From a virus (lineage: Duplodnaviria; Caudoviricetes), in IMG/VR virus record IMGVR_UViG_3300046167_000364, positions 1-58,241 of that record: 58,241 nucleotides of DNA; one strand, 5' to 3'. This document shows positions 12,929 through 54,113 of this stretch, piece after piece (position 1 is the first letter of the stretch; the number at the start of each line of letters is the position of its first letter). The notes beneath the pieces are model-generated. The model searched no databases, was not told the DNA's origin, and saw only the letters and a program-made list of their open reading frames with translations. Position numbers and translations under genes: made by a program.

Positions 12929-15583
12929 ATGAGTTCTGTTGAAGAGTATCTCAAGCTACTTTCTGAAGAAGAAACGCCAGAGTTATCTGAGCCTAAAACC
13001 GGCTCTGCCGTTGATGACTACTTTAGTTATATAGAGCAAAAGCGAATAGCTCGAAATGTCGGAAATGTAAGGGCGGCGGCTCAGGGCCTTACCTTTGGTT
13101 TTGCTGATGAGCTTGAAGCGGCGGCATCTGACGAGGAGTATGAGATTGCTCTTGCAAAAATACGGAAAGAGCAACAAAGGTATAAAGAAATGAACCCTGT
13201 TTCTGCGATTGGGTTTGAATTAGCAGGCAGTGTTCCTACTGCTGTTGCAGGTGCGGCTGGCCTTAGTCGTTTAGGCGTTACGTCTGCGGCTAAACAAGGA
13301 GCTTTAGAAGGTGCGGCTTATGGCACTGGCTCTGGAGAAAACTTTGAAGAGCGTGCCGCTGGCGCTGTTGTTGGTGGCTTAAGCGGCTTAGCGTTAGGAA
13401 AGCTTATTGATGTAGCGACAACGCCATCGTCCACTGGGGGTTTAAGAACTGAAGGACATGATCTTGCTGATAACTCCTTAAAGATTGAGCCTCAACTAGC
13501 AAACAAAGACATTGAAGCGGCAAGAGCTAACGAAGTATTTGATGAGGTAGACAACCCTCAGTACACCCAAAAGCCTTTGTCAGAAGCAAAGACCGCTGGC
13601 GAGCTTTGGTCTGGTTTAACTGGCGCTGTTAAGAACTTTTACAACGACAAGGTAACTGGTGTATCAGATGAGTTGATGCGTGTTGTTAGCCCGCAAGTAG
13701 GCGCTAGATTTCAACGTGCTGATGAAGCGGCTCTTGCCACAACAAACAAAGAGCTTGATGGGCTTTCAGAGCGCCTTGTTCCTGTTGTTAAGATTATTAA
13801 CGATAGTGAAAGAGCTAAGGGTGTAATACTTGATTATGCCGCAGGCAAGCTAGGTAAAACACGCAAAGACTCTCTTGTTAAATTACGTAAAGAGCTAGGT
13901 AACGATCTCAACACAGAACACATGAACGTGCTTGAGGCGTACCTTAACTATAGTTATAAGAAAAACGCTCAACTAAACAAAAAAGTATTTGGTGCCGCAT
14001 TCCCAGACGAACTTACCTATCTACATACGCGCAACATTTCTAGATACAAAGAGCTAAAAGATGAAGGCATGACAGATGCTGAAATCGAAAAGATGTTTGA
14101 AGATCCGGGTATGGAGCGGCGTACTCGTGGCTCTTATCTTAGTAAAGACTCCAATGCCCCGCGCCCAGAAGATTACGACAATCCAGTTATTTCGGATATG
14201 CAACGAATCTTTAAGATGGAGCGACTTGCGCAGGTGCAAGATAAGTTTGGCGTAAAGATTGACGATGTACTATCTGCTAAAAGAGCAACTCTTTCGGAGC
14301 GTGCGTTAGTTGCCTTAACTCCGCAGGAGTTTTTAGATTCTTTATTTTATACGCTAACCAATAAAGGCATCAGCAATGATGGCGCTCAGTATGCTGTAAA
14401 CAAAATAACTGACACCATTATGGGTCAGGCAAAGACGCCTCACCCAGCAATACAAGCCGCAAACTCTCTGGCCTATGCAACCACGCTTGCCGGCCCTATG
14501 TCTGCAATCCTTAACATTGCCGATATTCCTTTGTTAGGCGCTAAGTATGGCGGTCGTGCCGCACTTGAAGGTTTAAAGGTTCTTAATCCCTTTAAGAAAA
14601 TTCCTAGCCCAGACCTTAAAAAGATGGGCTTAAGCAATCAAACCTTTGGTGAATTCGTTAACAAAACAAATGAGCTTGCATCAAACAATCAAGGGTTTAT
14701 GGCAAGCACTGCACATCAAATGCGTAAAGGCGCTGACTTTTTAATGAAAGGCTCAGGCTTTGCGGCTATGGATCAAGTAGGCAAAAAAGGTGTTATGCGT
14801 GGCGTACTTCGTAGTGCAGTTGATGACGCCAAGATAGGAAATCTGTCTGAAAACTGGGGCTTTTACTTTAATAAAACCGAACTTGATTTGATTGGGGATC
14901 AGTTAAACAAGCATGGTATGGACTGGTCTAAGTACACAGGCGATGGAGCAAAACTTGTAGAAGAGCTTTTGTTTGCCGGGCTAGGTCAACAGCAGTTAAT
15001 TAGTGCGGCTGGTCGTCCTGCGGCATGGGCTAGAAACCCCAACCTTCGACCGCTGTGGGCATTGCGTGGCTTCGTAGTTAAACAGCAGGCCCTCGCGTTG
15101 CGGGAAGTCATGGGCAACATCAAAGCTGGCAAACCAGAAAAGGCGGCTCAGTTCCTTGGTCGCTACGCGGCGTATGGCGCAGGTGGGTATGCGGTAATTA
15201 ATGAAGGCCGACAATTTATCTTTGGTGACGGCGAAGCTTCATTTAATGGGCTAGTTCGAGGATACGGTGACGCCTGGGCAAGTTTGTTAACAGCCAATAC
15301 GCTTGGACTTAATGACTATCAATACGGTCAAATCAAGCAGAACGGGCTACTTTATACTTTTGCTCAGGGAATGATGCCGATAGCTATTGATCGTCCTTTG
15401 GATATTGGAAAGACAGTTGTTGAAGTGCTAGATAAAGAGCGACCACCACAGGCAATCGCTCAAGAATTACCAATCTTTACTCAGCCTATACGAACCGCAG
15501 AAAGAGCGGCGGGAGCTGTAGGGGCAACCACTACTCAAGGTCTTTTGCAAGAAGCACTGCGCAAACGCAATCCAGAACCTTAA
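12929..15583 (+). CDS. Putative large internal virion / ejection protein 3
   Basis: GLTFGFADELEA and Gly/Ala hydrophobic N-region; last gene of late operon. Confidence 0.6.
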   Translation: MSSVEEYLKLLSEEETPELSEPKTGSAVDDYFSYIEQKRIARNVGNVRAAAQGLTFGFADELEAAASDEEYEIALAKIRKEQQRYKEMNPVSAIGFELAGSVPTAVAGAAGLSRLGVTSAAKQGALEGAAYGTGSGENFEERAAGAVVGGLSGLALGKLIDVATTPSSTGGLRTEGHDLADNSLKIEPQLANKDIEAARANEVFDEVDNPQYTQKPLSEAKTAGELWSGLTGAVKNFYNDKVTGVSDELMRVVSPQVGARFQRADEAALATTNKELDGLSERLVPVVKIINDSERAKGVILDYAAGKLGKTRKDSLVKLRKELGNDLNTEHMNVLEAYLNYSYKKNAQLNKKVFGAAFPDELTYLHTRNISRYKELKDEGMTDAEIEKMFEDPGMERRTRGSYLSKDSNAPRPEDYDNPVISDMQRIFKMERLAQVQDKFGVKIDDVLSAKRATLSERALVALTPQEFLDSLFYTLTNKGISNDGAQYAVNKITDTIMGQAKTPHPAIQAANSLAYATTLAGPMSAILNIADIPLLGAKYGGRAALEGLKVLNPFKKIPSPDLKKMGLSNQTFGEFVNKTNELASNNQGFMASTAHQMRKGADFLMKGSGFAAMDQVGKKGVMRGVLRSAVDDAKIGNLSENWGFYFNKTELDLIGDQLNKHGMDWSKYTGDGAKLVEELLFAGLGQQQLISAAGRPAAWARNPNLRPLWALRGFVVKQQALALREVMGNIKAGKPEKAAQFLGRYAAYGAGGYAVINEGRQFIFGDGEASFNGLVRGYGDAWASLLTANTLGLNDYQYGQIKQNGLLYTFAQGMMPIAIDRPLDIGKTVVEVLDKERPPQAIAQELPIFTQPIRTAERAAGAVGATTTQGLLQEALRKRNPEP

Positions 15584-16793: not shown

Positions 16794-16958
16794 AGTTTGC
16801 CCAGTTTGCCCAGTTTGCCCAGCCTGCCTCTAATGCCCTAGTTTTACCCCCCTACTTGTCGCGCCAAGCCTGCTTCCGGCGACGCGACGGGCACGCTAAA
16901 CGTGGGCATCAGGGGCATTCTGGAGGTTTTGGGGCATTCTGGGCATTCTGGGCATTCT
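16794..16958. repeat. Inverted arrays of 9-bp iterons, candidate replication origin
   Basis: 3x AGTTTGCCC plus 2 degenerate on the left; 4x GGGCATTCT plus degenerate on the right; conserved at 52770-52918. Confidence 0.8.
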
Positions 16959-21144: not shown

Positions 21145-21978
21145 TTATGCGGCTTGGTTGTCATACTTTCGCATGAGTTCAAATTGCGACATGCAATACT
21201 CGAATGCTTTCTGCGCATCCTTTGCCGCTGTCGTAATGTATCGAGGATCAGACTTGATGGCCTTCTGCCATGACTTGATATAGCTGGCGTGTTGGCTGAT
21301 GTCATAGGTCACACCCAGCTGAGCGCATAGAAAGATAGATCCTAACTCTGCAACTAACTCTTCTTTGGCATAGTCTTCATGTCCAAACGCACCAGTCAGA
21401 TCACGATCTAGTCGTTTGCTGTGACCGGTAGAGTGAATGCACTCGTGATAAAAGGTGGATTGATAAGCATCGTCAGACTCAAATTGCCCTGGCATAGGCA
21501 TCCGAATCTGGTCAGCTGAAGGTGAGTAACACGGGTTGTGGTGCTCTGCATTACTCACTTTGACTTGCAGTGCGTCGGCAATCTCGTTTGGATTGTCGAG
21601 CCTGCTTTCTCGTATTGGTATCTCAGGTAACTCGATACCTGTTTGGTCAATGTTGAATAAGTTGTATACCTTTGCAAAAGCAAACTCCTTTTCAGGATCT
21701 TTCTTGTCCTTAGCTTTGCTAAAGAAGATTGCAGGTGTTGCCTTCTGACCTTTAACACTACCGCCAAGCTGTTGCACTTGGTTCCATGTAAGCCAGTAGG
21801 GTTTAGTGTAGCCATATTTCCAGCTAGCAATCATTGTCATTAGCTGGTTCGTGCCATTGTATGGGCGCTTAGTCACCCAGTTTTGGTGGAGGCAAGACTG
21901 TGACTCCCATGTCTTGCGCCATGTAGTCTCGTCTGCCATAGCAGACTCAACGAGTTCAACGATTCGATCATATTTCAT
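21145..21978 (-). CDS. ardC: ArdC-like ssDNA-binding antirestriction protein with zincin domain
   Basis: PYNGTN, YWLTWNQVQQLGGSVKG, YNLFNIDQT, HECIHSTGH, YAKEELVAE. Confidence 0.85.
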   Translation of the reverse strand: MKYDRIVELVESAMADETTWRKTWESQSCLHQNWVTKRPYNGTNQLMTMIASWKYGYTKPYWLTWNQVQQLGGSVKGQKATPAIFFSKAKDKKDPEKEFAFAKVYNLFNIDQTGIELPEIPIRESRLDNPNEIADALQVKVSNAEHHNPCYSPSADQIRMPMPGQFESDDAYQSTFYHECIHSTGHSKRLDRDLTGAFGHEDYAKEELVAELGSIFLCAQLGVTYDISQHASYIKSWQKAIKSDPRYITTAAKDAQKAFEYCMSQFELMRKYDNQAA

Positions 21979-22019
21979 AACAGTTCCTTTTTGGTTTTGG
22001 TTAGTAAACTTTATCAAAG

Positions 22020-22407: not shown

Positions 22408-22822
22408 CGTATGGATACTCCACTTCTGCTTCGTCATCTTCTGTTGACTCGTCACCTAACGAATGACCTTCGCTGTAATGCTCTTCATCGTACTGTGCCA
22501 TGCAAAGATCAATGCGTTTATCGGCAACGTCAGTCGCCCATTCGATGGCATCGTCTTCGTTCTTTGCAAGCACCTTAACAATCGACACTACATTGGTGGT
22601 TACCTCAATGCAGTAAACGCGTTTGTCTATGGACTCTTTGAGTTCCATGATTCGATCTTCGGTGTAACTCAACGACATTCGTATCTGTCGCAAGTCTTCA
22701 ATTGCATCGTTACTTAACTCTTCAGTGACATTGGCATCGTTTAGGTGATGAAGTAGCCGACTGCGATAGTCGACTAACTCGTGAAACAAACCTTCGAGGT
22801 CATTGATTAACTGGTCTTTCAT
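22400..22822 (-). CDS. Hypothetical acidic early protein
   Basis: GGAGG RBS; V.A.NEDDA motif. Confidence 0.65.
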   Translation of the reverse strand: MKDQLINDLEGLFHELVDYRSRLLHHLNDANVTEELSNDAIEDLRQIRMSLSYTEDRIMELKESIDKRVYCIEVTTNVVSIVKVLAKNEDDAIEWATDVADKRIDLCMAQYDEEHYSEGHSLGDESTEDDEAEVEYPYDE

Positions 22823-23007
22823 GCTACATCCTCCGTTGGTATTACATCTATTTGTACTGCTTCCAAATCTAACAAGCGTGGCCTGTCATCTAGCAGATCA
22901 CCTTCGCGCCATCCGATAATTGCATGGGCTCGTGCCAGGCATTCATCGTCAGCTTCCACCATCACTATGTGACGTGTTGTTTCTATCAATGTAACTATGT
23001 ATTCCAT
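22819..23007 (-). CDS. Hypothetical early protein
   Basis: AAGGA RBS; V.VEADDE..A motif. Confidence 0.6.
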   Translation of the reverse strand: MEYIVTLIETTRHIVMVEADDECLARAHAIIGWREGDLLDDRPRLLDLEAVQIDVIPTEDVA

Positions 23008-23035
23008 AACTAATTCCTTTTATAAATTAAATTAA

Positions 23036-23281
23036 CAGACCGCCGTTCGGCGGCGCGACCCGACACCGGCGCTGTCCAGCCGGTATAATCGTCGGTCGCC
23101 CGACTCGGCGTGTCTGGCGTCAAAGCTGGCGTGATGCGCTAGCCACCATCGCACCATGGATAACAGCTATAACAACTAAAACTATTAAGTAATGCGATCC
23201 GGGACAGGCACGCGGAAAGCGGAGGCTTCAGCCGTAGCGGTAAATAGCGCGGCTTGCCGCGGCTACCGCGTGACCTGGCCC
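23036..23281. other. Two GC-rich branched stem-loop domains (structured ssDNA or ncRNA)
   Basis: Nested complementarity at 23036-23116 and 23201-23281. Confidence 0.65.
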
Positions 23282-23301
23282 TCAAGATTGGAGACCAACA
23301 T

Positions 23302-23325
23302 AAAAAAAGGAGGCCTAAGCCTCCT
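23302..23325 (-). terminator. Intrinsic terminator
   Basis: Minus strand AGGAGGC-TTAG-GCCTCCT followed by T tract. Confidence 0.8.
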
Positions 23326-23557
23326 CGATTGAGTCGTATGTAAGTTCGTCTTGCTCACGCAGACCATCCATGTACTCGATAAACGACTCACGCAACTGGG
23401 CCGTTGCTTGCTCGTCTATTTTATTTCGCAGTGACTCATACGGATGGTCCTTGAGCAAACGAAGAAGGATGTCTGCCTCTCTAACGGAGACGCGTAGCTT
23501 TAATCCATTCTTCCTGATTCGATAACGCTTTGCTCTAGTTTTGTTACTCATAGTCAT
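23315..23557 (-). CDS. Hypothetical early protein with basic N-terminus
   Basis: AAGGAG RBS; ends in terminator. Confidence 0.65.
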   Translation of the reverse strand: MTMSNKTRAKRYRIRKNGLKLRVSVREADILLRLLKDHPYESLRNKIDEQATAQLRESFIEYMDGLREQDELTYDSIEEA

Positions 23558-23578
23558 GATAGAACTCCTTTGTATGAA

Positions 23579-23594
23579 GGGGGCCGAAGCCCCC
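23579..23594 (-). promoter_or_regulatory. Intergenic cUUCGg hairpin upstream of RBS
   Basis: GGGGGC-TTCG-GCCCCC on minus strand. Confidence 0.6.
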
Positions 23595-23602
23595 GAATGG
23601 AT

Positions 23603-23959
23603 TTAAGCGATCTTGCGAGTCTTCGGTTTCACGACCTTTTTGGAGTCCGTTACTGCCGAAGGCTGTGTCTGCTTTAGTAAATGTGGGTTGATAAACTCTT
23701 CTTCGTCGTGAAAGTTAGAAGACATCTCGACTTGCTGGCCTAACTTGTAAAGGTCGATAGTACCTGTGATGTTTGGGCGTCTCCCTTCCGGGCTAGCGTC
23801 CGCCCAGAACGAGTACGGTAGACGTAAGCTTGAACCATCCTCAAACTCAATGGCGACACTGCCTGCGTGTGTTGGACGCTTGCCTTGATGGAACTGATTA
23901 GTCCAGCCAGCAATTGAGATTGACTTGATTTTGTTTTTCATTTCGTTAGAAGTTTTCAT
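23603..23959 (-). CDS. Hypothetical protein, first early gene of A
   Basis: AAGGA RBS; 118 aa. Confidence 0.65.
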   Translation of the reverse strand: MKTSNEMKNKIKSISIAGWTNQFHQGKRPTHAGSVAIEFEDGSSLRLPYSFWADASPEGRRPNITGTIDLYKLGQQVEMSSNFHDEEEFINPHLLKQTQPSAVTDSKKVVKPKTRKIA

Positions 23960-23985
23960 CTTGAGATTCCTTTTCTCTATATGAT

Positions 23986-24517
23986 TGAAGAGTCCCGAAG
24001 GGACACTTCATGAACAGCATGGATCAGAGGGGATCAGATTCGCTCTGGCCGACCCGGATCATTTCCGGATGTGTCCTTTTCCGGTAATGATGCGGACTCG
24101 GACAAATCTGATGGTCAAGACAACCGAAAAAATCCCCAAGGATTTTTAGCTATCGGTTCTTGCGCCCGCTTTAGCGGGTGGTCTTGAACTGTTCCCCTCC
24201 CATGCTATTGACTGCACGCGCAACATGGATGGGTAATCGGTGGCCCTGACAAGGTTGCGTGCACTTTACCAGCCGGAGGCTGGCGCAAATCCGATAGGAT
24301 TTCCTTGTCAACCGATTAACCGGGCATGTGAATAGCGCGCGTGCGCGAGCGGCTATAAAACGGTTTAGGCGAGTAGCCGGCCGCGGGGAATCCCCGCATA
24401 GGGGATTACCAAGGTAAACCGTAGCCTTACAGCGAGCCAACGGTGGTGGCATTACCGCGAGGCAGAGCCGAGCCAGAGGGAATATCATTCCCGATGCGGT
24501 AGATATCAGTGCTCTGC
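23986..24517. other. About 530 nt array of closed multi-stem domains (structured ssDNA or large ncRNA)
   Basis: Closing helices at 24016-24206, 24214-24344, 24351-24426, 24462-24517 plus hairpin 23986-24010. Confidence 0.7.
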
Positions 24518-24781
24518 TGGTTAACTTGGTAACTATTGGAAACCACTTCAAGAGGGTACTTCACAGACTCACACTCATTGGCACCACTAATCGTATATCC
24601 GGTTATATATCGAATGCACCTGTATGGTTTAGCTTGGCATATATCAAATCTGCCAGGTCTTTCAGGTTAAATAGTGGGATGATTGATACCGGGGGGGGTA
24701 ACTTGACGTCGGTACAATTAATAGTTCCCACCCACATACAAAAAAAGCGGATTTTGAAAGTGCAACGGGGGGTCTAAACTT

Positions 24782-24827
24782 GGGCATTACGGGCATTCTG
24801 ACCTTTTCCGGGCATTCTGGGCATTCT
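24782..24827 (+). repeat. Second cluster of GGGCATTCT iterons
   Basis: GGGCATTAC GGGCATTCT N10 GGGCATTCT GGGCATTCT. Confidence 0.8.
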
Positions 24828-24929
24828 AAACAGGGTTTTTGCGGTTGCTTTAACTTCCTGATTACCAAAGGAATAATGAAGAGGTTTTTATTCCGTTAAG
24901 TTATAAGGTAGGATTTATATTGAAGGGTG

Positions 24930-24958
24930 TTGATTAGCACTCAGGACATATATAGGAT
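24930..24958 (+). promoter_or_regulatory. Candidate late promoter upstream of terS
   Basis: TTGATT-17-TAGGAT. Confidence 0.5.
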
Positions 24959-24996
24959 AGGGAGGGTGGGTTGGTTAAATAGCCAACTTAAAATTT

Positions 24997-25452
24997 ATGG
25001 CATCAGAGTACGTTAAACAGCGCAAAGCTGAGATCAAGAAGAGAAAGCAGGAGTCTGGCAGGCCATCCAAGAAGGATTTGGCGGCTAACTCTCCCGGTGG
25101 TAGGGGCAAGCCCGGTCGACCGAAGGGTGATGCTACGATAATCAATGAGTATAAGTCGCGTATGCTGGCTTCTCCGAAGTCCAAGCGTGTACTTGATACT
25201 ATCTTTGATGCGGCATTAGACCATGACCATAAGAATCAGGCGGCGGCATGGAAGTTAGTAATGGATAGAATCCTGCCTGTGGCGGCATTTGAAAAAGATG
25301 TCGTGCAAAATGGCGGGAAATCTGCTATTCAGATCAACATTACGGGTGTGGGTGCCGCTGAGGTTAAGGATGTTGGCGTGGACTCCAGCGAATTCGATCC
25401 CAACACTATCCAACCTACGGTGATTAACGGGGACAACGGTGAAATACTTTAG
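24997..25452 (+). CDS. terS: Putative terminase small subunit
   Basis: GRP motifs, AWKLVMDRILP, IQINITG; upstream of terL. Confidence 0.65.
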   Translation: MASEYVKQRKAEIKKRKQESGRPSKKDLAANSPGGRGKPGRPKGDATIINEYKSRMLASPKSKRVLDTIFDAALDHDHKNQAAAWKLVMDRILPVAAFEKDVVQNGGKSAIQINITGVGAAEVKDVGVDSSEFDPNTIQPTVINGDNGEIL

Positions 25453-26142: not shown

Positions 26143-27396
26143 ATGAGTGATCTCAATATAGAGCTACTGCCTTGGCAACAAGAAGTCTGGGCAGACGATA
26201 CCCGATTTAAAATTGTAGCGGCTGGCAGACGTACGGGTAAGTCCCGCCTCGCCGCATGGATGTTGATAGTCAATGCTTTGCAGGCCGATAGGGGACATGT
26301 ATTCTACGTTGCACCAACCCAGGGACAGGCGCGGGACATCATGTGGCAAACTCTTTTGGAGTTGGGTCATCCTGTTATCGCTGGTAGTCACATCAATAAT
26401 CTCCAAATCAAACTGGTCAATGGAGCAACCATTAGCCTCAAGGGCGCCGATAGACCAGAGACGATGCGGGGTGTTAGCCTCAAGTTCTTAGTTCTCGATG
26501 AATACGCGGATATGAAGCCTGATGTATTCGAGCAAATCCTGAGACCGGCACTTGCCGACCAAAAGGGATGTGCAATGTTCATTGGGACGCCAATGGGAAG
26601 GAACCACTTTTACGAATTGTATAAGTATGCGGAGCTGGGTGATGATGAAACTTACGCGGCCTACCATTTTACTTCTTACGATAATCCTCTGCTTGATAAA
26701 GATGAAATCAATACTGCTAAAAGGAGCATGTCTAGTTATGCATTCCGTCAAGAATTTATGGCGAGCTTTGAAGCTCGTGGTTCAGAAATGTTTAAAGAAG
26801 ATTGGGTTCGGGTCGAAGCAGATCGAGAGCCCCGTGGAGACTACTACATCGCCATCGACCTCGCCGGCTTTGAAGAAGTCAACAAAAAGCGCACCAAAAA
26901 CGCGAAGCTCGACGAAACCGCGATCGCCGTCGTCGACGTCTCGGAAGAAGGCTGGTACGTCGAAAACATCATCTACGGCAGGTGGACGCTCGACGAAACG
27001 GCCATCAAAATCTTCCAAGCCGTAAGAGATTACAGGCCAGTATCCGTGGGTATCGAGAGGGGCATAGCCAAGCAAGCCGTTATGTCTCCTCTTGTTGACC
27101 TACAAAAGAAGTACGGTACGTTTTTCCGGGTAGAAGAACTAACCCACGGCAACAAAAAGAAAATAGATAGGGTCATGTGGGCATTGCAGGGCCGCTTTGA
27201 GAATGGGTATATCACCCTAAACAAAGGCGAATGGAACTCAAGATTCCTTGACCAACTGTTCCAATTCCCTGATCCTTTGACCCATGATGACTTAATAGAC
27301 GCATTGGCTTACATTGACCAACTAGCCAAAGTGGCTTATGACTATGAATACGAAATAGACGACCACGACATCTTAGACATAGTGGCGGGATACTAA
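26143..27396 (+). CDS. terL: Terminase large subunit
   Basis: AGRRTGKS, YVAPT, VLDE, IGTP, AIDLAG, HDDLIDA. Confidence 0.95.
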   Translation: MSDLNIELLPWQQEVWADDTRFKIVAAGRRTGKSRLAAWMLIVNALQADRGHVFYVAPTQGQARDIMWQTLLELGHPVIAGSHINNLQIKLVNGATISLKGADRPETMRGVSLKFLVLDEYADMKPDVFEQILRPALADQKGCAMFIGTPMGRNHFYELYKYAELGDDETYAAYHFTSYDNPLLDKDEINTAKRSMSSYAFRQEFMASFEARGSEMFKEDWVRVEADREPRGDYYIAIDLAGFEEVNKKRTKNAKLDETAIAVVDVSEEGWYVENIIYGRWTLDETAIKIFQAVRDYRPVSVGIERGIAKQAVMSPLVDLQKKYGTFFRVEELTHGNKKKIDRVMWALQGRFENGYITLNKGEWNSRFLDQLFQFPDPLTHDDLIDALAYIDQLAKVAYDYEYEIDDHDILDIVAGY

Positions 27397-27397
27397 T

Positions 27398-29422
27398 ATG
27401 AGCGACCTGTACGAACAAGATCCTTTAATGATCCAAGAATCCTTAGAGGATTGGGTTATAACAAAGTGCGAGGATTGGCGTGATTACTATGAATCTAACT
27501 ATGAAGACCGCTTTGAAGAATACTATCGGCTATGGCGTGGGATTTGGGATCCCGCTGACAGTGAGCGCCGGAGTGAGCGTAGCCGTATTATCTCTCCTGC
27601 TTTACAACAGGCTGTTGAATCTAATGTTGCTGAGTTAGAAGAAGCGACGTTTGGGCGGGGTAAATGGTTTGATGTCTCTGACAACCTTGGGGACACCTCA
27701 AAAGAAGACGTTCTTTTCCTGAGAAACAAGCTTACCGAAGACTTTGAAGACTGCATGATTCGTAAGTCTGTTGCGGAATGCCTTATCAATGCCGCCGTAT
27801 TTGGTACAGGCATTGGCGAAATCGTCATTGAAGAAATGAAAGAAATGTCTCCTGCCACTCAACCTATTATGGATGGTGACCTTCAGGCAGTAGGCGTTAA
27901 TATTCAAGACAGAGTAAAAGTTAAGCTCAGACCTGTGCTTCCCCAGAACTTCTTAATTGACCCTGTCGCTACAAGTGTTGATGAGGCATTAGGTGTTTGT
28001 ATTGATGAGTTTGTTAGCCGTCACCAAGTAGAGCTTCTTCAAGAGCAAGGCGTTTATCGTGATGAAATACTAGGCAGTGCCGCACCTGACACTGACCTTG
28101 AGCCCGATCAAGACATTACGATCTATAACGACGACAAAATTCGCCTTACTAAATACTACGGCCTTGTTCCTCGTGATCTTTTAAACAACGCAATGAGTGA
28201 TGAAAACGACTTTGGCGATGGCGAAGATACAAAGTACGTTGAGGCAATCGTTGTTATTGCTAACGGCGGAATACTTCTTAAAGCAGAAGCCAATCCTTAT
28301 ATGATGCAGGATCGTCCGGTCGTAGCATTCCCGTGGGATGTAGTGCCTGGGCGGTTCTGGGGAAGAGGCGTTTGCGAGAAAGGCTACAACTCACAGAAAG
28401 CACTCGATACAGAGCTTCGGGCTAGAATTGACGCACTAAGCTTGACTATCCACCCAATGATGGCCTTGGATGCAACCAGACTGCCTAGAGGTGCTAAACC
28501 AGAAATACGTCCCGGTAAGATGATTCTGACTAACGGAGATCCTAGAGAGGTGCTCCAGCCGTTTAACTTTGGTCAGGTTAATCAGATTACTTTTGCGCAA
28601 GCTGGTGCGTTACAGCAGATGGTTCAGCAAGCTACAGGCGCAGTGGACTCAGCAGGTATTGCAGGGCAGGTTAACGGTGAATCTACAGCGGCAGGAATTA
28701 GCATGTCGTTGGGTGCGCTGATTAAGCGCCACAAGCGCACACTAATTAACTTCCAACAGTCTTTCTTGATTCCGTTTGTTAAGAAGGCCGCACATAGGTA
28801 TATGCAATTTGATCCCGAATCTTACCCCGTTGCAGATTACAAGTTTAACGCTAGTAGCACTCTGGGTATTATTGCTCGTGAGTACGAAGTTACTCAGCTA
28901 GTGCAGTTGTTGCAGACGATGGGCAAAGACTCTCCTTTGTACACAACGCTTATTCAATCGGTAGTAGACAACATGAACTTGTCTAACCGCGAGGAACTTA
29001 TTGCGGCGATGCAACAGGCGATGCAACCTAATCCGCAGGCACAGCAAATGCAGATGCAAGCACAGCAGTTGCAGATGCAGTTCCAGCAATCTCAAACAGC
29101 GGCACTGTCTGCGCAGGCACAAGAGTCTGCGGCTAGAGCGCAAAAGCTTTCGGCTGAAGCGGCAGTGGTTCCGCAAGAGCTTGAGATTGACAGGATCAAT
29201 GCTGTTACCCGAAACTTGCGTGAAGGCGATCAAGACGACAAAGAGTTTGAGCGTCGTTTAAAAGTTGCTGACACACTACTTAAAGAGAAACAAATCCAAG
29301 GAAAAGAGAATGCTAACCGACAGAGAACTCCAAATGATCTTCCAGCGGTTCCAAAGCCAAATGGAGCCACTCCAGCGCCAAGTGCAGGAACTCCAAGCCA
29401 AGGTGGAGGCTTTAACCAATGA
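27398..29422 (+). CDS. Portal protein
   Basis: 674 aa directly after terL; FWGRG, NFLIDP motifs; Q-rich C-terminal helix. Confidence 0.85.
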   Translation: MSDLYEQDPLMIQESLEDWVITKCEDWRDYYESNYEDRFEEYYRLWRGIWDPADSERRSERSRIISPALQQAVESNVAELEEATFGRGKWFDVSDNLGDTSKEDVLFLRNKLTEDFEDCMIRKSVAECLINAAVFGTGIGEIVIEEMKEMSPATQPIMDGDLQAVGVNIQDRVKVKLRPVLPQNFLIDPVATSVDEALGVCIDEFVSRHQVELLQEQGVYRDEILGSAAPDTDLEPDQDITIYNDDKIRLTKYYGLVPRDLLNNAMSDENDFGDGEDTKYVEAIVVIANGGILLKAEANPYMMQDRPVVAFPWDVVPGRFWGRGVCEKGYNSQKALDTELRARIDALSLTIHPMMALDATRLPRGAKPEIRPGKMILTNGDPREVLQPFNFGQVNQITFAQAGALQQMVQQATGAVDSAGIAGQVNGESTAAGISMSLGALIKRHKRTLINFQQSFLIPFVKKAAHRYMQFDPESYPVADYKFNASSTLGIIAREYEVTQLVQLLQTMGKDSPLYTTLIQSVVDNMNLSNREELIAAMQQAMQPNPQAQQMQMQAQQLQMQFQQSQTAALSAQAQESAARAQKLSAEAAVVPQELEIDRINAVTRNLREGDQDDKEFERRLKVADTLLKEKQIQGKENANRQRTPNDLPAVPKPNGATPAPSAGTPSQGGGFNQ

Positions 29423-32806: not shown

Positions 32807-35800
32807 ATGTCTAACTACACTAAGACTACAGACTTTGAAGCCAAGGATTCGTTACCTACGGGTGATTCAGAAAAGATTATTCGGGGATCTGAATTCGAGA
32901 CAGAGTTCGATGCAATCTCCACAGCTATTGCGACTAAAGCTGACACGGCAGGGCCTACGTTTACCGGAACCCTGACTTTTGAAACCATTTCCGATGGATC
33001 TATTAACGTCACTGCCTTTGTTGATGAAGACAACATGGCGTCTGATAGTGCGACATTAGTTCCAACACAGCAGTCCGTAAAAGCGTACGTTGACTCTGTA
33101 ACCACAGAACTCCAAGCGCAAGACCTAGACTTTCAAGCAGACTCAGGCGGCGCACTAAATATTGATTTAGATACTGAGACCATGACCTTTACAGGCGGTA
33201 CTGGTATTGACACGTCTGGCTCAGGTAATGCCGTTACCTTTGATATTGACTCTACTGTTACCACTCTGACTGGTACACAAACACTTACTAACAAGACGCT
33301 TACTGCTCCTACTATCTCCGGCAACCTAACTACAGACGGAACCATTGATGGCCGTGATGTTGCTACAGATGGCGCTAAGTTAGATGGCATAGAAGCAAGT
33401 GCTACTGCTGACCAAACAGCCGCAGAAATTCGTACACTGGTTGAATCAGCTACCGACTCTAACGTTTTTACTGACGCAGATCACAGCAAGCTAGACGGCA
33501 TTGAGGCTAGTGCTACAGCAGATCAGACAGATGCTGAGATTAGAGCCGCAGTAGAAGCCGCTACGGACTCCAATGTATTTACCGATGCTGACCACACTAA
33601 ACTAGACGGTATTGAAGCCTTAGCAGACGTAACGGACACAACTAACGTTACAGCCGCTGGTGCCTTAATGGACTCAGAGCTAACTAACCTTACTGCTGTT
33701 AAGTCTCTGGATCAAGGCGTAGCAACTACTGACACTCCAACCTTTGCAGGTCTAACGACTACAGCAGACGTGTCTTTTGGCGACAACGACAAAGCTATCT
33801 TCGGTGCTGGCTCTGACCTACAGATTTATCATTCAAGTTCGCAAAGTTATATTGAAGATGCAGGTTCAGGAAATTTAAATTTTAAATCGAACGGCAACAA
33901 CTTTAACTTCTTGGACGGAAGCGACAATGTTGTTATGCAAATTGATATGGATTCAGAGACAACTCTATATCACAACACAAATGCCAAACTAGCCACAACC
34001 GTCCACAGGCATCGACGTAACTGGCGCAGTTGTAGCCGATGGGCTTACTGTAGATGCGGCACAAAGTAACTTTAATGACAGTGCAGGGTCGGTTATAGCT
34101 TTCCAAAAATCTGCAAGCGCAAAAGCGTGGATATCTAATAGGTCTTATAGTTTTCACAATGGCAACGGTCTTGCTATTAACACTACAGACGCTAACCCCA
34201 TAATATTCGGCACAAACAATGCAGAACGCCTACGCATAGACTCATCAGGCAATGTCGGTATTGGTACTACGAATCCTGACCGTGCTATTAAAATTGAAAA
34301 AGACAATGCGTACGTCTGGATCGCTGACGCTGAGGGAGGAAACGTAGGCTTTATTGGGGGCAGTGGATCAAACGATGGACTCCTTCGTCTTTATGAAGGC
34401 GCGGGGCATACCGCAAAAGTAGAAATACATAGTGACGCTGACAGTTATTTCAATGGCGGCAATGTTGGTATCGGCACTAGCAGTCCAGCTAACAAACTTC
34501 ACGTTATGGGCGATAGCTCAACTAGGAACACTATTGTTTCTAATGTGACTCTTGATGGCGGTACTACTGTAGCTAACCCATATGAAGGTTTTGGTTTTGG
34601 CGTTGATTTTATTGGCAGAGATTACGGCAACGCTGTCAGAAACTACGCAGGTATCTATAGCTTAATGGAGCACAAATCTTCATCTTCTGGCGGTGGAGAT
34701 GCTGGATTTAAAACAGGATTAAGTTTTTATACAAACAGTGGTGGAGCAAGTAATACTAATCCAAGTGAAAAGATGCGTATCGACTCCGACGGCAACGTAG
34801 GTATTGGCACTAGCAGTCCGTCATATCCTTTAACCGTCCATGACACTGGCGATGGCATTAAATTTGAAGTCAGCGATACAGTCGATGCTAACTACAGAAT
34901 ACAAGTAAGCGGCAGTGATATTGTTACAGGCCCGTCAACTTCCAGTGCTTATACGTTTCAAACGGGCAACACAGAACGTATGCGCATCACAAACACTGGT
35001 GATGTAGAAGTAAAATCAGGTGGTAAGTTACAAGCAAACAGAGCTGACAACGCCAGAAACATTCAGCTGTTCAATGACAGTGATTTTGGGACAATACAAA
35101 CCTCAAATGACCCAATAAAAATTGCCTCTCAAGCGTACACGCGCTTTGACGTAGGCGGCGCCGAACGACTCCGCATAGATGCTAGCGGTAACTTGCTGGT
35201 GTCTGGCACTGAAGCTAACCCTGCTCAGAACAACACAACTGATGCAATCTCATTGCACAATGCTGGTTTGTTACGTGCATCTACTACGAATGCGGCGGCT
35301 CCTTTAGATTTAAATGTTAAGTCTCGTGATGGTGATATTGCGACATTCCGCAAAGACGGCACCTTAGTCGGTAGTATTGGTAGTGTCAGTGGTTATTTGT
35401 ATGTAGGCGGTACAGCAGGTGATGACGCTTTCTTGTCTTTCGGTGTTAATGGTGTTCGCCCTTCTACTTCTGCTGGTGCCGCTAGAGACGCCGCTATAGA
35501 TCTTGGTGGCTCAACTAACCGCTTCAAAGACCTTCACCTGTCAGGCGGTGTCTACCTAGGCGGCACAGGTTCAGCCAACCATCTGGATGACTATGAAGAA
35601 GGGACGTGGACTCCTACGTTTTTAGGGTCATCAACTGACCCAACTGTTACATACGGAACAAGACACGCAACTTACACAAAAGTCGGTCGTCTTGTAACTT
35701 TATTTTTTGACATGACTATTAGTTCGTATTCAGGCGGAAGCGGTACTGTAAAAGTAGGAGGCTTGCCTGTAGCCCAAAGCGGTAATGCAAGAGGTGTTGG

Positions 35801-52769: not shown

Positions 52770-52918
52770 AGTTTGCCCAGTTTGCCCAGTTTGCCCTGTG
52801 TGCCCAAGGTTTAGGGGGCCCCTTTTACCTAAAACACGTCAAGGTGGGGGGTATATCATGGGCATTAGTGGCATTCTGGGCATTCTGAATCGGGCATTCT
52901 GGGCATTCTGGGCATTCT
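52770..52918. repeat. Inverted 9-bp iteron arrays, candidate origin of B
   Basis: 3x AGTTTGCCC plus TGTGTGCCC; 4x GGGCATTCT plus 2 degenerate. Confidence 0.8.
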
Positions 52919-54113
52919 ACATAGGATTCCATCGGTAAAACTTCTTCCCATGAGCCCCCCTTCGCTCCAGTGTGAGGTTGTTCCCTTTCAATAAGTCGAT
53001 ACAGGCGCGCAATGTTTTTCTTGTACAGCCGTTGGGGTTTACCTCGTGGTCGCTGAGTAGGTCGAACAACTCCGATTGTGCCCAAGCCTTGTTACTTTTC
53101 ATCACACTGCTGAGTAGGATGTACTCATCTTCGTACTTAGCATTAGCCTTACTTATATTAATTTGAGCCTTTTGCTTACCCTTTAACTCGCTGATATCGT
53201 CGGTACTCATAAACTCAACAGAGTCTACGGACTCTTCGTACTGAACAACTGCGCTAGTTTGCTTGTACTTGAAGCCACCCTCGAAGCTGATCTGGCTACG
53301 ATCCTTTTCATTGATTACTAGAAGTTCTTGATAGGCGGCGAACTTATCGTTCACTGGGTCAAGGCCAAACATATTGTCAACGTCTGACTTCAAATCCCCT
53401 ACGCCTTCGTAGATCAATCGACCGTCCATGCTTCGGTGCTTGTTGCAGTGGCCCAATAAGATGACCGTGCCACCTGCCGCCGCGAACTCACGAAAGACGT
53501 GCAGTACGTCCCGCATATCGCCCTTGTTTAACACTGGCGCAAACTTCTTAAGGGTGTCACATATCACGATCTTGCCATTGGCCTCGCCCTCTATGCGTAT
53601 CTGATCGAGCATACGAAGCGCGTCGTCTGTCTTGCGTAGGTTAGGGTCAACAGAGTTAGCCAAGGTAATCATGTTCATGCCGTGACGCTTGCCCATCTTC
53701 GCCTTCTGAAGCACACCCTTGGCACCGTCATCCTCGTTGAAGTAGATGACATCGGAGCCGCGTATCAGGTTGTTGCGAATAGATTGGAATAGGTTGCCCA
53801 GTATCCACACTGTCTTACCTGCGCCACTGGGTGCGTAGACTAGAGTGACTGTGCCGGTTGTAATCATGCCTGGAATCACGTCCCGCTCCTGTGCGAGGCG
53901 CTCTTCTAGCTCTTCGATCCTTCCGTTTACTGAGGCAGACATCAGCCTTGATAAAGCTGAAGATCCGTTTTGCTTTGTGAAATATGGGTTGCCGGGGAAG
54001 GTTTCATTGATCGCCCTTTCCTTTTCTGCCCATGCTGAGGGTTGCTTTATCTGACTTGGTGGTACTGAGATTTTATTCTGCTCTTGAACGTACCATTCCC
54101 AATCATCCATCAT
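52917..54113 (-). CDS. Replication ATPase / helicase
   Basis: Homolog of 16961-18100. Confidence 0.75.
   Translation of the reverse strand: MMDDWEWYVQEQNKISVPPSQIKQPSAWAEKERAINETFPGNPYFTKQNGSSALSRLMSASVNGRIEELEERLAQERDVIPGMITTGTVTLVYAPSGAGKTVWILGNLFQSIRNNLIRGSDVIYFNEDDGAKGVLQKAKMGKRHGMNMITLANSVDPNLRKTDDALRMLDQIRIEGEANGKIVICDTLKKFAPVLNKGDMRDVLHVFREFAAAGGTVILLGHCNKHRSMDGRLIYEGVGDLKSDVDNMFGLDPVNDKFAAYQELLVINEKDRSQISFEGGFKYKQTSAVVQYEESVDSVEFMSTDDISELKGKQKAQINISKANAKYEDEYILLSSVMKSNKAWAQSELFDLLSDHEVNPNGCTRKTLRACIDLLKGNNLTLERRGAHGKKFYRWNPM

Follow-up and report, generated by a model that had tools for sequence, protein, structure and literature searches.

The window, by which we mean the whole 58,241-nucleotide stretch analysed, belongs to a tailed phage. 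Scans of 23 of its 91 open reading frames (ORFs) against PHROGs and 45 against Pfam identified terminase, portal, capsid and tail genes, together with AAA_25 helicase-like, NinB-, NinG- and ERF-like genes and an ArdC-like anti-restriction gene. No RNA polymerase domain was found among the 23 ORFs scanned against PHROGs and the 45 scanned against Pfam, and no relaxase or Rep among the latter; searches for tRNA and tmRNA found none, and blastn against INPHARED phage records returned no match. Inside the leftward early operon, an intergenic gap separates the gene for an 80-amino-acid (aa) protein from the gene for a 62-aa protein, with which the block that runs on to the ArdC-like gene begins. 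The operon starts approximately 1 kb to the right of this gap, behind a conserved noncoding region. The 80-aa protein has an Arg-rich N-terminus, which we take to resemble those of RNA-binding antiterminators of the lambda N type, and matched no family in the PHROGs and Pfam scans.

The record comprises approximately 1.6 genome units, in which two related phages are joined head to tail (1–24800 and 24800–58241). Its tail and early regions recur co-linearly at 64–96% identity, CheckV gives a completeness of 100%, and a close relative measures 35.4 kb (35,401 bp) and has terminal repeats. The 58-kb record may be an assembly that is chimeric or concatemeric. At 15580–15583 the tail operon, running rightward, meets the early operon, running leftward; their stop codons overlap, and no terminator was found between them.

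Table 1 Features of the gap and its surroundings. Positions are those of the window unless a relative is named.
Feature	Position	Strand	Description
Record IMGVR_UViG_3300046167_000364	1–58241		Whole IMG/VR virus record
ArdC-like anti-restriction gene	21145–22017	minus	PHROGs/Pfam scans
62-aa gene	22819–23007	minus	Downstream neighbour of the gap
Spacer and start of the 62-aa gene	23005–23035	minus	A/U-rich spacer, Shine–Dalgarno sequence, start codon
Intergenic gap	23008–23314		307 nt
D1	23036–23116		81-nt rod: five helices (~29 bp), one-sided 6-nt bulge, 8-nt loop
D1 helix	CAGAC 23036–23040 with GTCTG 23112–23116	plus	
D1 helix	CGCCG 23041–23045 with CGGCG 23106–23110	plus	
D1 helix	GCGACC 23055–23060 with GGTCGC 23094–23099	plus	
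D1 helix	ACCGGC 23065–23070 with GCCGGT 23079–23084	plus	
Local hairpin	23039–23054	minus	6 bp and a U-rich tail; competes with long-range pairs of D1
Small hairpin and 12-nt direct repeats	23117–23144		Two repeat copies
AT-rich middle	23145–23198		Short closing helix in all variants (by eye); one compensatory change in L084
D2	23199–23282		Optional 84-nt irregular hairpin; unpaired TAAATA at 23241–23246
19-nt segment	23283–23301	minus	Kept in all variants; 4-bp mini-hairpin with variable 3-nt loop
Intrinsic terminator of the 80-aa gene	23300–23326 (hairpin 23326–23307)	minus	8-bp GC-rich hairpin and a run of seven U
80-aa gene	23315–23557	minus	Upstream neighbour of the gap
Conserved noncoding region, ~1 kb	23960–24997 (core 23990–24560)		Head of the early operon
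9-nt direct repeat runs	24774–24827, 16896–16949, 52846–52928		In the noncoding region and next to both AAA_25 helicase-like genes
Terminase gene	26143–27396		PHROGs/Pfam scans
Portal gene	27398–29422		PHROGs/Pfam scans
Second 80-nt hairpin of relatives	L008:3625–3705, L038:799–879, L013:3049–3129 and others		Intergenic

The part of the gap nearest the 62-aa gene folds into a long hairpin, D1 (Table 1). A sequence-only reading of this DNA had described four nested helices that leave a perfect TATAAT largely unpaired on the 3′ arm. All four helices are present on the plus strand, and only the first T of TATAAT (23084–23089) is paired, with A23065; the other five bases and C23090 form the one-sided bulge. 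The same reading called the fold branched, a description that we had to correct, as D1 is a rod and branches only if the local hairpin at 23039–23054 replaces long-range pairs. This local hairpin was flagged in the terminator scan, with a weak tail, and has counterparts, identified by eye, in relatives L041, L084, L013 and L093. Against shuffled sequences, D1 scored z = -3.6 (minus strand) and -4.2 (plus strand) when folded as RNA and -3.5 and -3.9, respectively, when folded as DNA. The 246-nt span 23036–23281, folded as plus-strand DNA, scored -4.1, and the whole gap, folded as RNA, -5.6 (plus) and -3.4 (minus). No Rfam 15 family matched in the window at the gathering score, and at E values of up to 10 the region 22900–23400 gave four weak partial matches, none spanning D1 or D2; D1 is not represented in Rfam. 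A pseudoknot between the bulge and the tail before the Shine–Dalgarno sequence was rejected: duplex energies of -0.6 to -2.9 kcal/mol were no better than those of shuffled tails (a fraction of 0.38–0.93 of shuffles did as well), and co-variation of the A/G–U/C kind, judged by eye, failed. Pairing of the D1 loop with the middle region was also rejected, as L034 carries a loop change for which we saw no compensation by eye.

Neighbouring-protein and pattern scans yielded approximately 30 contigs of relatives. We compared 29 upstream regions, some of them the same contig from two collections, and 25 of these have a recognisable start of the 62-aa gene. Twelve of the 25 loci carry a full D1 and two (L013 and L014) a mini-version of 95 nt. 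In the other 11 there is no gap at all, and the 62-aa gene overlaps the stop codon of a gene for a small membrane protein; this shows the entire gap to be an optional insertion. The sequence-only reading had placed the fold where a promoter is needed. With the 62-aa gene abutting its upstream gene in 11 of 25 loci, and the operon starting approximately 1 kb to the right, a promoter is not generally needed at this position. Judged from these comparisons, the gap appears to be a self-contained, dispensable intergenic cassette of a small clade of ~35 kb marine tailed phages.

The neighbours of the cassette vary. On the upstream side is the 80-aa gene, a gene for a membrane protein or a gene homologous to the window's 118-aa gene; on the downstream side is the 62-aa gene, or an additional 59-aa gene in L084 and L087. 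D1 always lies 15–30 nt upstream of a ribosome-binding site, in the same orientation, in three gene contexts. Between L041 and the window, identity is 92% for D2, 85% for D1 and 61% for the neighbouring protein (best tblastn segment). A looser pattern found 15 IMG/VR loci, comprising eight known contigs, two new true copies of D1 (L088, 85.0 bits; L093, 48.7 bits), one match to the core only (L098, 14.4 bits) and four loci that had no model match and resemble coding DNA. In L093, D1 stands alone between two unrelated genes. Model R1 counts one D1 per genome. A search for host or prophage copies with a profile of the 140-aa protein gave only one weak 23-residue match in genome contigs. Thirteen genome-contig loci with the D1 core pattern, mostly in Clostridia-type MAGs, are core-only by construction, score at most 21.9 bits and were taken as unrelated. 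Relatives also carry a second, highly conserved intergenic hairpin of 80 nt approximately 200 nt after the 140-aa gene (Table 1). At its end come an A/U-rich spacer and a ribosome-binding site that nearly match those of the D1 cassette, which suggests shared boundary sequences for gene shuffling.

In an alignment of 11 D1 sequences, 10 of them distinct, 95.9% of pair cells were standard, as against 29–52% with slid partners. Six of the 29 pairs had changed on both sides, a count that none of 500 shuffles reached, so the covariation check proposed in the sequence-only reading came out in favour of the fold; RNAalifold recovered the same rod. In L093 the lower helices are all of different sequence and still pair, and what is retained is the bulge with the five base pairs adjoining it, the apical stem of 6 bp (with one pair flipped) and the pattern of the loop. 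The D1 fold is real and under selection. Its most conserved parts are the unpaired bulge and loop, which points to sequence-specific recognition beyond mere stem stability.

In the direction of the operon, the cassette consists of a terminator, a conserved 19-mer, the optional D2, an AT-rich part, 12-nt direct repeats, D1 and a ribosome-binding site. The terminator scan confirmed the terminator named in the sequence-only reading. This element combines a GC-rich hairpin with a U run, as an intrinsic terminator should, and is present in all cassette variants with compensatory changes. D2, which scored z = -3.8 and -4.3 against shuffles, is carried by 6 of the 12 loci with a full D1 (four distinct sequences) and is missing as a clean indel from L009, L010, L025, L026 and L033. 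The four distinct copies are nearly invariant, so covariation neither supports nor refutes the fold; the changes observed, three substitutions and one indel inside the closing helix, either affect unpaired positions or leave a pair intact as U·G in the sense orientation. The second domain described in the sequence-only reading thus held in part: its outer helices and unpaired TAAATA are present, and the inner TAGC/GCTA helix is broken in two of the four copies. The 80-aa gene is restricted to some D2-bearing genomes. It is missing in L041, where the idea that D2 accompanies this gene fails. We also rejected D2 as a mimic of a CRISPR repeat (an RNA anti-CRISPR): among 185,579 species genomes an 18-nt D2 word gave 29 single matches and no CRISPR arrays, and the similarity ended within ~23 nt. 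The 12-nt repeats number three in L009, L010 and L011, and L041 has other repeat words. D1 lies ~20 nt from the next ribosome-binding site, and the last 14 nt of the segment that holds the A/U-rich spacer, the Shine–Dalgarno sequence and the start codon of the 62-aa gene are nearly identical in L093. A leader peptide starting from the ATG after the terminator was rejected: it lacks a Shine–Dalgarno sequence and its stop positions vary.

The bulged word also belongs to a promoter-like sequence. On the plus strand, CCGACA (23060–23065) and TATAAT (23084–23089), separated by 18 nt, match 10 of the 12 sigma-70 consensus positions. This is the best site between 15.5 and 25.5 kb and one of only two scoring at least 10/12 in the 58 kb, where first-order Markov simulations gave 11.1 +/- 3.2; promoter-like words between 15.5 and 25.5 kb number 5, with 14.8 +/- 4.3 expected. 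The second strong site (34177–34204) lies outside any hairpin. CCGACA-18-TATAAT is the only sigma-70-like site common to all nine cassette variants, at 9–10/12, and within its -10 word only the third base changes (TATAAT or TACAAT), at the position that is least constrained in -10 elements. In the mini-version (L013 and L014) the bulge word is kept at a spacing of 14 instead of 18, as would be expected of a hairpin motif more than of a linear promoter. In the sense direction, eight of nine cassette variants have no sigma-70-like site of at least 8/12, and the window has none of at least 10/12 before the early or the late operons. The sequence-only reading was therefore right that the leftward operon shows no strong conventional promoter.

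Which strand acts was judged from folds and from reading the alignments by eye. RNAalifold energies of D1 are equal on both strands (-39.98 versus -40.37). The L093 rod folds better on the TATAAT strand than on the sense strand, both as RNA (-67.9 versus -58.3 kcal/mol) and as DNA (-33.3 versus -30.6 kcal/mol), and its three to four irregular positions are G·U or G·T on the plus strand and C·A in the sense orientation. The one difference between L088 and L084 is of the same kind. By this reading, wobble-type positions favour the plus strand in four of four cases (~1/16 by chance), from two lineages and mostly from L093; the core pairs of D1 are Watson–Crick only. The terminator, which served as a control, has G·U pairs only in the sense orientation (L009 and L010), and the one informative change in D2 (L011) keeps its pair only in sense. 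The strand bias that the sequence-only reading had suggested as a check split: D1 leans to the plus strand and the rest of the cassette to sense, and D1 may act either as RNA or as folded DNA. In the sense orientation two runs of six U start within 2 nt after the L093 rod; elsewhere the sense tails after D1 begin with UU, and in most variants they are interrupted and U-rich, with weak U runs. One run of contigs, probably from DNA, gave no coverage of 22963–23868 and favours no interpretation.

We tentatively favour, ahead of the alternatives below, the interpretation that D1 is an intercistronic hairpin of the sense RNA, formed in the leftward early mRNA and recognised by a factor. D1 fills the slot, composed of hairpin, short A/U-rich spacer and ribosome-binding site, that simple hairpins occupy before other early genes. 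It may end or attenuate transcripts arriving from upstream and form a stable mRNA end; the conserved bulge and loop would serve as a docking site for a protein or for RNA polymerase, and the docked factor would set the level of expression passing into the block from the 62-aa gene to the ArdC-like gene. TATAAT would then be nothing more than the complement of AUUAUA, the conserved bulge word. We infer from several lines of evidence that the sense RNA is the active molecule and that it has this role. The flanking genes are conserved and on the minus strand, so a sense transcript must cross D1. Compensatory change in 6 of 29 pairs, with the replacement of the L093 stems around a preserved bulge, apical stem and loop pattern, favours a hairpin that works as RNA. 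The same order of hairpin, A/U-rich spacer and Shine–Dalgarno sequence is found before the 118-aa and 80-aa genes and argues in the same direction, as do the two U runs after the L093 rod, which give it the look of an intrinsic terminator, and the lean to sense of the terminator G·U pairs and the D2 change.

The upstream leader adds to this argument. The conserved noncoding region at the head of the operon is 67–99% identical across its blastn matches to relatives, and folding its 570-nt core gave z = -6.2 (sense) and -5.5 (antisense). In a five-sequence RNAalifold analysis of the core, 17 of 145 pairs had double changes and whole modules were swapped, and its long-range helices contain sense-orientation G·U pairs in all five sequences. 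The leader had no Rfam match; we regard the region as a candidate large structured leader or noncoding RNA. Its sense G·U pairs and covariation imply that these phages use structured sense RNA heavily, which favours reading D1 as sense RNA. Other observations count against it. L093 folds much better on the TATAAT strand and the L088 change agrees; the complement of the bulge is a perfect -10 that varies only at its third position, within one of only two sites of at least 10/12 in 58 kb; a strong terminator stands 190 nt upstream with no visible sense promoter in the cassette; and the RNAalifold energies do not separate the strands.

The promoter-like words could instead form an ordinary duplex sigma-70 promoter, directed rightward and antisense to the early operon, embedded within a hairpin that works as RNA; its product would be an antisense RNA or an RNA of the cassette, or convergent transcription from it would damp the leftward operon. 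The 10/12 match, a spacing within 16–18 bp, conservation in nine of nine variants with change at -10 position 3 only, and the depletion of such words elsewhere speak for this promoter. It would, however, leave unexplained why bases upstream of the -35 covary with bases downstream of the start. Its -35 lacks both leading T and there is no A/T-rich UP region; it would fire away from the operon, with no plus-strand terminator with a U run before the upstream gene; its target would vary (80-aa gene, membrane-protein gene, 118-aa homologue or, in L093, an unrelated gene); and the spacing falls to 14 in L013 and L014. We consider it unlikely. Less probable again is a promoter formed by the folded plus strand, either as single-stranded DNA (ssDNA) or extruded from supercoiled DNA. 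Host sigma-70 RNA polymerase would bind the bulged -10 and transcribe or prime leftward along the 5′ arm into the 62-aa to ArdC-like genes, a principle akin to that of N4 or Frpo but without a phage polymerase and without a duplex mimic of -35 and -10. Such a structure-dependent promoter, or primer site, driving an anti-restriction gene block in a tailed double-stranded DNA (dsDNA) phage is an improbable outcome on our assessment. Its geometry, place and orientation, as proposed in the sequence-only reading, are coherent: the bulged -10 lies on the 3′ arm, and the plus strand serves the downstream genes as template. That D1 keeps one place and orientation just before a ribosome-binding site in three gene contexts, with the same orientation in L084, L013 and L093, fits this promoter as well as it fits an RNA leader. 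Watson–Crick core pairs and wobble-type positions that favour the plus strand are also in its favour, as is the ArdC-like gene in the downstream block; in plasmid leading regions, anti-defence genes are reported to use ssDNA promoters (PMC11541004). The likeness to Frpo and the ssDNA stage that this reading invoked did not stand up. Upstream of the -10 the fold offers no more than 6 bp and a loop, and 11 of 25 relative loci lack the cassette. The strand asymmetry under DNA parameters is small (2.7 kcal/mol in L093, none in the window), and the second strong promoter-like site lies outside any hairpin. The terminase, portal and capsid genes mark this as a tailed phage; nothing indicates single-stranded entry, single-stranded replication intermediates may occur, and we know of no single-stranded stage at entry in tailed phages.

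Alternatively, the cassette as a whole may be a small sense-strand RNA gene, with a non-consensus promoter after the first terminator and D1 as its own terminator. Two terminator-like elements in the same direction ~200–280 nt apart, the conservation in all variants of the 19 nt right after the first of them, and a cassette more conserved than the flanking genes (L041) suggest such a gene. Set against these are the failure to find a promoter, the occurrence of D1 without the rest of the cassette in L093 and L013, and the weak U runs after D1 in most variants, and we place this explanation below both promoters in probability. We think it very improbable that D1 is a site acting at the DNA level, for example an origin of replication or a palindrome bound by protein and flanked by iterons. 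The direct repeats, which vary in copy number and have other words in L041, lie beside an AT-rich stretch and a large palindrome and are reminiscent of one, but the element is dispensable in many relatives, its helices are swapped for unrelated sequences that still pair, and its one-sided bulge breaks the symmetry. Better iteron candidates are the 9-nt repeat runs beside the AAA_25 helicase genes (Table 1), which may alternatively be operator sites. Our ranking thus runs from the sense-RNA hairpin through the antisense promoter, the folded-strand promoter and the sense RNA gene to the DNA-level site, with the remaining weight on none of these.

As a sense-RNA element, D1 would join the cis-regulatory hairpins supported by covariation and would be unusual among them in how well its bulge and loop are conserved; its carrier would be a mobile intergenic cassette at a place where marine phages swap early genes. 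Such a cassette would help in annotating phages and would bear on the notion that gene shuffling is driven by regulatory cassettes. Were the plus-strand hairpin read by polymerase, structure-dependent promoters, which are known from conjugative plasmids, filamentous phages and N4, would also occur in ordinary tailed phages and take part in controlling anti-defence genes.

Among known systems, the intercistronic hairpins of phage early mRNAs include intrinsic terminators and attenuators and the RNase III sites of T7 and lambda. D1 resembles these in being long, in its asymmetric internal loop and in its position between early cistrons before a ribosome-binding site; to our knowledge, sites of the T7 and lambda type are not known for a bulge and loop conserved across otherwise unrelated stems. 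The promoter of phage N4 is a short stem with a 3-nt loop, used by the phage's own giant virion RNA polymerase, and filamentous phages are ssDNA replicons with a hairpin minus-strand origin. D1 would be like these hairpins if the folded strand acts, as a polymerase would then recognise a template-strand hairpin in ssDNA or extruded by supercoiling; unlike the N4 case, the ORFs scanned here show no RNA polymerase domain.

The Frpo fold mimics duplex DNA, with -35, -10 and UP elements each paired to complementary regions, and lies on the strand that enters the recipient cell as ssDNA (PMC11541004). D1 is like Frpo and ssi sequences in that a fold involving a -10 word precedes early anti-defence genes, and the folded strand is the template of those genes. 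Compared by fold and context, it differs in having its -10 in an unpaired, one-sided bulge with nothing opposite, in lacking a UP element and in belonging to the replicon of a tailed dsDNA phage. In DNA folds, CCGAC of the -35-like hexamer pairs with 23091–23095, starting one base after the -10, so D1 hides a promoter and does not mimic one. Without a duplex mimic and without a strand known to be single-stranded, D1 lacks two defining features of Frpo and falls outside that class. The PeSL cassettes of T4-like phages carry an early promoter in the sense direction (PMC4122927). The D1 cassette differs from them in the absence of a sense sigma-70-like site of at least 8/12 from eight of nine variants, and also in its greater length (250–350 nt) and its covarying hairpins with conserved unpaired words. 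Like PeSL (PMC4122927), it is a small, conserved intergenic terminator module at the boundaries of variable neighbours, and by this analogy the D1 cassette may be said to recall the composite terminator/promoter cassettes of T4-like phages.
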